A stretch of 64,000 nucleotides of DNA from Escherichia coli. Lineage in GTDB: Bacteria > Pseudomonadota > Gammaproteobacteria > Enterobacterales > Enterobacteriaceae. The stretch lies in the NCBI RefSeq assembly GCF_048403405.1, contig NZ_CP183129.1. One strand, 5' to 3'. Each line of letters starts with the position of its first letter. Positions within the stretch are counted from its first letter, which is position 1. Both the position numbers and the translations under genes were made by a program. This document shows, piece by piece, positions 10,379 to 10,621 of this stretch. The notes beneath the pieces were generated by a model that was not told the origin of the DNA, did no database searches, and saw nothing but the letters and a program-made list of their open reading frames with translations.

Positions 10379-10621
10379 GATGTAATCCTTGTGCAGACAA
10401 ATTTCTTGTTACCTAAACGTAACAATACCATGACATTTCACCGTTGTCTGCTCTGAAAACCTCACCTCTTAGCTGGATTTACAATCAACGCATTGATTAG
10501 TTAGCTAATGTTGCTACTTCCTTCCCTGACTATTGATGATCTGAATGAATTGTCGCGGTAAAATAGCCCCGCCAGGGGTTTCCGGCATGACGACAATTAT
10601 CTGGAGGAGCCTGATAAAACA

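Follow-up and report, generated by a model that had tools for sequence, protein, structure and literature searches.

The ynaJ–ynaI Intergenic Region and Its Flanking Genes

The stretch of Escherichia coli DNA that was analysed in this work (referred to below as the window) is 64 kb in length and contains, at positions 10379..10621, an uninterrupted intergenic region of 243 bp (GC content of 42%) that separates the divergently oriented genes ynaJ and ynaI and represents the un-inserted allele of this locus. The gene ynaJ (10121..10378, minus strand) encodes a small membrane protein of 85 amino acids (aa) belonging to the DUF2534 family, and ynaI (10622..11653, plus strand) encodes a low-conductance mechanosensitive channel of the MscS family that is 343 aa in length. 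Both coding sequences are present in the list of open reading frames (ORFs) of the window, and the gene identities were confirmed by the RefSeq annotation of near-identical genomes and of K-12 (viz. ynaJ in strain TUM14771 and as b1332 in K-12; ynaI in the near-identical genomes and in K-12). The lengths of the two genes equal those of the K-12 annotations b1332 and b1330. The YnaJ protein is identical to the K-12 copy, and the Pfam family DUF2534 is recorded for a product identical to it, while YnaI differs from its K-12 counterpart at one residue only (D340 in the window, E in K-12). In the window, the genes abgT, ogt, fnr, and uspE are located upstream of ynaJ and the genes mppA and pgrR downstream of ynaI; the window holds intact copies of ynaJ, uspE, fnr, and ogt.

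The initial annotation of this DNA had described the 243-bp spacer as unbroken, and our analyses bear this out, as the start codons of the two divergent genes directly flank positions 10379–10621 and no insertion sequence (IS) is found between them. A blastn search in which IS5F of K-12 served as the query revealed no similarity to IS5 anywhere in the 64-kb window.

The spacer was also examined for regulatory features. A perfect palindrome, TTGTTAC-N6-GTAACAA, is present at positions 10406–10425 (28–47 bp upstream of the ynaJ ATG) and constitutes a candidate operator. No consensus-like sigma-70 promoter was detected in a consensus scan of positions 10000–10800, and the same scan recovered one terminator-like hairpin on the minus strand (10587–10570), a number within the chance expectation of 0.7 ± 0.9. 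No RNA family was found in or near the spacer in an Rfam E-value scan of positions 9000–12000; the sole Rfam family that reached its gathering threshold in the 64 kb is the McaS/IsrA small RNA (1992–2087, plus strand; 112.8 bits). On the other side of ynaJ, a GC-rich hairpin with flanking T/A runs is located between the convergent genes uspE and ynaJ (10092–10111), and this hairpin has been used as a model under the name of ‘ynaJ-uspE bidirectional terminator’ (bioRxiv 10.1101/2022.10.23.513370).

IS5F of K-12 and Its Target Site

The presence of an IS5 (insH) copy at this position in K-12, which the initial annotation had stated, is confirmed by the annotation of strain MG1655 (NC_000913.3), by alignment, and by the junction sequences. 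In MG1655, the element annotated as ‘insertion sequence:IS5F’ (1396044–1397238; 1,195 bp) lies between ynaI (b1330; 1394891–1395922, minus strand) and ynaJ (b1332; 1397365–1397622, plus strand), and its transposase gene insH4 (b1331; 1396112–1397092) reads towards ynaJ. The comparison with K-12 that had been proposed as a check was carried out by aligning the window to K-12 positions 1340000–1412000, and it places IS5F at the site rather than yielding a K-12 sequence free of any IS. One block of this alignment pairs window positions 1886–10504 with K-12 positions 1405857–1397239 and the other pairs window positions 10501–15820 with K-12 positions 1396043–1390724; the two blocks stop precisely at the ends of IS5F and have 4 bp of the window in common.

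The 4-bp overlap corresponds to TTAG at positions 10501..10504, an IS5 target site (YTAR) that occurs once in the window and that the element occupies, and has duplicated, in K-12, and it is the second TTAG of the run TTAG-TTAG-CTAA that extends from 10497 to 10508. Both flanks of IS5F in K-12 carry CTAA (in the K-12 orientation), equivalent to TTAG, and this pair of tetranucleotides represents the 4-bp target-site duplication that IS5 is expected to produce. CTAA and CTAG have been named as IS5 insertion sites in work which lists the ynaI/ynaJ element among the 11 IS5 copies of strain BW25113 (PMC11677980, Table 1). The two hallmarks of the K-12 allele, viz. an IS5 of ~1.2 kb at ynaI/ynaJ (with the terminal inverted repeats GGAAGGTGCGAA... 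and the transposase gene insH) and a duplicated 4-bp YTAR target, are both absent from the window, where TTAG is found in a single copy.

When IS5F and one copy of TTAG are removed from the K-12 sequence, a sequence of 243 bp is obtained that agrees with the spacer of the window at 243 of 243 positions. The chromosomal site is thus the same in the two strains, with flanks that are 100% identical to the spacer of the window, but the element is present in K-12 and absent in the window, where its target is single-copy. The insertion point in K-12 is upstream of both genes, at a distance of 126 bp from the ynaJ ATG and 121 bp from the ynaI ATG; the palindrome at 10406–10425 lies on the ynaJ side of this point, so that it has been kept beside ynaJ in K-12. 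Other K-12-specific IS5 copies (viz. those in wbbL, nmpC, and yhiS; PMC11677980, Table 1) likewise belong to the K-12 lineage and occupy sites of the CTAA/CTAG type. However, these three copies are inside genes, whereas the one at ynaI/ynaJ occupies the spacer of a divergent gene pair.

Distribution of the Empty and Occupied Sites among E. coli Genomes

The distribution of the two alleles was determined in a set of 5,426 complete E. coli genomes, 5,422 of which contain the locus. An uninterrupted spacer, recognized as a single match over at least 80% of the query, is present in 5,055 of the 5,422 genomes (~93% of the complete genomes, 5,055/5,426), and the exact junction between the ynaI flank and IS5 that characterizes K-12 is present in 353 of 5,422; the remaining 14/5,422 show neither of these two arrangements. 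The spacer is at least 99% identical to that of the window in 4,954 of the 5,422 genomes, and in an even sample of 60 rows it is 100% identical in 29, or about half. In nearly all of the sampled rows, the spacers of natural isolates are 98.8–100% identical to that of the window, and the uninterrupted state is shared by strains as diverse as O157:H7, Nissle 1917, and AST85, the last of which (95.1% identity) is the most divergent genome in the sampled rows. In the natural isolates TUM14771 (NZ_CP128875.1), MS 69-1 (NZ_CP146675.1), O157:H7, and Nissle 1917, the ynaJ–ynaI region is, like that of the window, unbroken and 243 bp in length, and no notable difference from the window is seen. The same 243-bp spacing is found in all 10 of 10 representative contigs (standing for ~250 contigs) from public assemblies and metagenomes that encode an identical YnaJ. 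Six plasmid-borne matches to the spacer were also observed in the complete-genome set.

The occupied site has a much narrower occurrence; whether its 353 carriers derive from K-12 was judged from the names and genome sizes of a sample. The 47 full-length junction matches that were sampled are all either laboratory K-12 derivatives by name or genomes of K-12 size (4.5–4.75 Mb). An evenly spaced sample of the junction-positive genomes includes MG1655, W3110, BW25113, BW2952, DH5alpha, NEB10-beta, MC1061, O16:H48 mouse-gut strains, the transconjugants of J53 and EC600, and the early K-12 stock WG1; DH10B was likewise among the sampled genomes, and HB101 is found among the rows of the 353-genome search. 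The earliest K-12 stocks already carried the insertion. The count of 353 was obtained with a 240-bp query, and a 48-bp query gave 359 genomes at a coverage of at least 80%; an additional match of the shorter query, in strain FXCREC123 (93% identity), was rejected, as it represents an IS5 located beside a type I restriction-modification system and not at ynaI/ynaJ.

Since the junction is found in 353 genomes, those sampled being K-12-like, and 5,055 genomes have an empty site, parsimony across the lineages of E. coli leads us to infer that the empty site is ancestral and that the insertion is derived and specific to K-12. The window almost certainly carries this ancestral allele, never inserted, with the IS5 insertion confined to K-12 and the window strain not being a K-12 strain, which is the reason why the element is lacking. 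According to the mechanism that we propose, IS5F (insH4/b1331; 1,195 bp) would have transposed, in the K-12 lineage alone, into the TTAG equivalent to window positions 10501–10504 and would have doubled this tetranucleotide, in the manner of IS5 at YTAR sites, so that the spacer of the window would represent the native control region for both ynaJ and ynaI. The unbroken spacer is the ordinary wild-type state of the locus and is already known as such from genome annotation and the literature.

Two other histories could account for an empty site. The lineage of the window may once have had an IS5 at this position, with its precise excision restoring a single TTAG, an event that would give exactly the sequence observed (one TTAG, 243 bp). 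We regard this as very improbable, because the occupied site is seen only in K-12-like genomes, while the 5,055 genomes of the other sampled lineages are empty, and because the window diverges by 1.7–3.4% from K-12 and contains no IS5 at all; excision would therefore require thousands of independent precise events, or else an insertion event much more ancient than would be expected from its distribution. It is similarly hard to credit that an IS is truly present in the genome and was dropped through an artefact of assembly such as the collapse of repeats. IS copies are a classic source of trouble in short-read assemblies, but a collapsed or skipped IS breaks contigs and would not leave a perfect single-copy target; moreover, six independent complete genomes that are identical or nearly identical to the window at this locus are also uninterrupted, as are 5,055 complete genomes overall. 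The presence of a never-inserted ancestral allele in the window remains the preferred explanation.

Strain Background of the Window

The suggestion of the initial annotation that the window is derived from a non-K-12 lineage is upheld by its comparison with MG1655, in which the aligned blocks are 96.6–98.3% identical and near-identity to K-12 is not observed across the region. Three segments of the window (viz. 1–1885, 15821–16480, and 55257–63153) have no counterpart in K-12. The closest genomes, with an identity of ~100%, are those of the human isolates 4621, MS 69-1, OX030728, TUM1226, TUM14771, and GN02461, followed by a next-best value of 99.2%, and the window differs from TUM14771 by 4 mismatches in 31.1 kb. 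The human isolates MS 69-1, 4621, and TUM14771 and their close relatives form a small group to which the window strain belongs. The uninterrupted spacer itself is the norm for the species; hence, it tells only that the strain is not K-12, not which lineage it belongs to.

The version of this region found in the window was also said to be less decayed than that of K-12, with ycjV and ymjC intact, and this holds for both genes. The gene ycjV (25306..26388, minus strand) encodes an ABC transporter ATP-binding protein of 360 aa; its ORF is free of internal stops, and TUM14771 is annotated with an intact ABC ATP-binding protein at this location. In K-12, the copy is frameshifted: the stretch that comprises ycjV and ymjB is shorter by 1 nt, its reading frame encounters stop codons, and the two genes are annotated as pseudogenes. 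Where K-12 has ymjD/ymjC, the window encodes a full-length oxidoreductase of the SDR family (15682..16320, plus strand; 212 aa), which is present as an ORF and is annotated in TUM14771. As positions 15821–16480 of the window are missing from K-12, the ymjD/ymjC of K-12 represents a remnant of this 212-aa oxidoreductase. Neither of the K-12 lesions (viz. the ycjV frameshift and the ymjC/ymjD remnant) is found in the window.

The same comparison bears on the possibility that the window comes from an engineered K-12 derivative from which the IS5 copy has been deleted, such as an IS-free chassis or the delta-IS5 mutants described in PMC11677980. Strains of this kind exist, and in that work the ynaI/ynaJ IS5 was deleted together with one of the flanking target sites. 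The chance that the window represents such a strain is vanishingly small, and the divergence refutes it, since 1.7–3.4% of the aligned positions differ from MG1655; in addition, the window has an intact ycjV, the full SDR gene, a 7.9-kb efflux block, and an AraC/HlyD block, all of which K-12 lacks. For annotators, the window is thus to be read as non-K-12 DNA that has intact ycjV and SDR genes and, on the preferred reading of an ancestral empty site, the probable native control region of ynaJ and ynaI; its wider importance is small.

Consequences of the Insertion in K-12

In K-12, the element is upstream of each of the two genes, only ~120 bp from the start codon, and its transposase gene is oriented towards ynaJ; because of this arrangement, it is possible, albeit rather doubtful, that IS5 has rewired the expression of ynaI and/or ynaJ, e.g. 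by removing upstream regulator sites or by adding activating features borne by IS5. If this were the case, the abundance of the YnaI channel in K-12 would be atypical of natural E. coli, and the native control region, palindrome included, would be the one seen in the window. One study reports that in a K-12 strain the level of ynaI mRNA is higher than that of mscS mRNA and that the chromosomally expressed YnaI protein is below detection (Edwards et al., 2012; PMC3508906). As ynaI mRNA is readily detected in K-12, IS5 does not silence ynaI, and a term search of that study yielded no passage concerning IS5 near ynaI. In a SELEX study of sigma factors, peaks near ynaI are found only within genes (PMC5493296). 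No report of an effect of IS5 on the expression of ynaI or ynaJ was found in the literature examined.

A different consequence, affecting the stability of the region, has been described for K-12 strains. In a W3110 stock, the genes ynaJ-uspE-fnr lie between the b1331 IS5 and another IS5 copy close to ogt, and the authors concluded that these two copies recombine, thereby removing the genes between them (PMC2072959). A spontaneous delta(insH4-fnr) mutant of MC4100, strain PB1000, has also been reported (PMC3149613). The K-12 deletions of ynaJ-uspE-fnr make use of the IS5 adjacent to ynaI, whereas the window is devoid of IS5 and retains ynaJ, uspE, fnr, and ogt in intact form. As no IS5 is present in the window, the substrate for such deletions is lacking in this strain, and the practical implication is that a source of instability linked to IS5 in K-12 is absent from it. 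In a W3110 derivative (L017, NZ_CM143902.1; 2395–4121), the ynaI-side IS5 is fused directly to a truncated ompN, which indicates a deletion extending from ynaJ (with uspE and fnr) through the Rac prophage region.

Other Differences across the Window

Several other differences between the window and K-12 were observed in the course of the alignment. The segment at positions 55257–63153 is a 7.9-kb efflux block located between sapF and fabI, which contains genes for an MFS transporter, an outer-membrane factor, an RND permease, a periplasmic adaptor, and a TetR regulator; K-12 has a 666-bp segment with ycjD in its place. An 8.4-kb query that covers this block is matched over at least 80% of its length in 2,037 of the 5,422 complete genomes. 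The 28-kb segment that extends from 16481 to 44570 (mpaA through the ycj, psp, and puu genes) is 96.6% identical to K-12, the adjoining blocks being 98.1–98.3% identical, and it may represent a recombination tract of different ancestry. At the end of this segment, in the spacer between puuR and puuC (window ~44568–44570), K-12 has 122 additional bases (1362518–1362639), which may constitute a repetitive extragenic element.

Positions 1–1885, which K-12 lacks, begin inside a gene of the HlyD family. The counterpart of this segment in TUM14771 is a block between smrA and abgR that contains an MFS gene of the DHA2 family (frameshifted in that strain), the HlyD-family gene, and a regulator of the AraC family. 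In three public contigs (L007, L011, and L012), a gene for an AraC-type regulator follows ogt at about 6885–7258 and replaces abgT, from which it follows that the abg region varies among strains.
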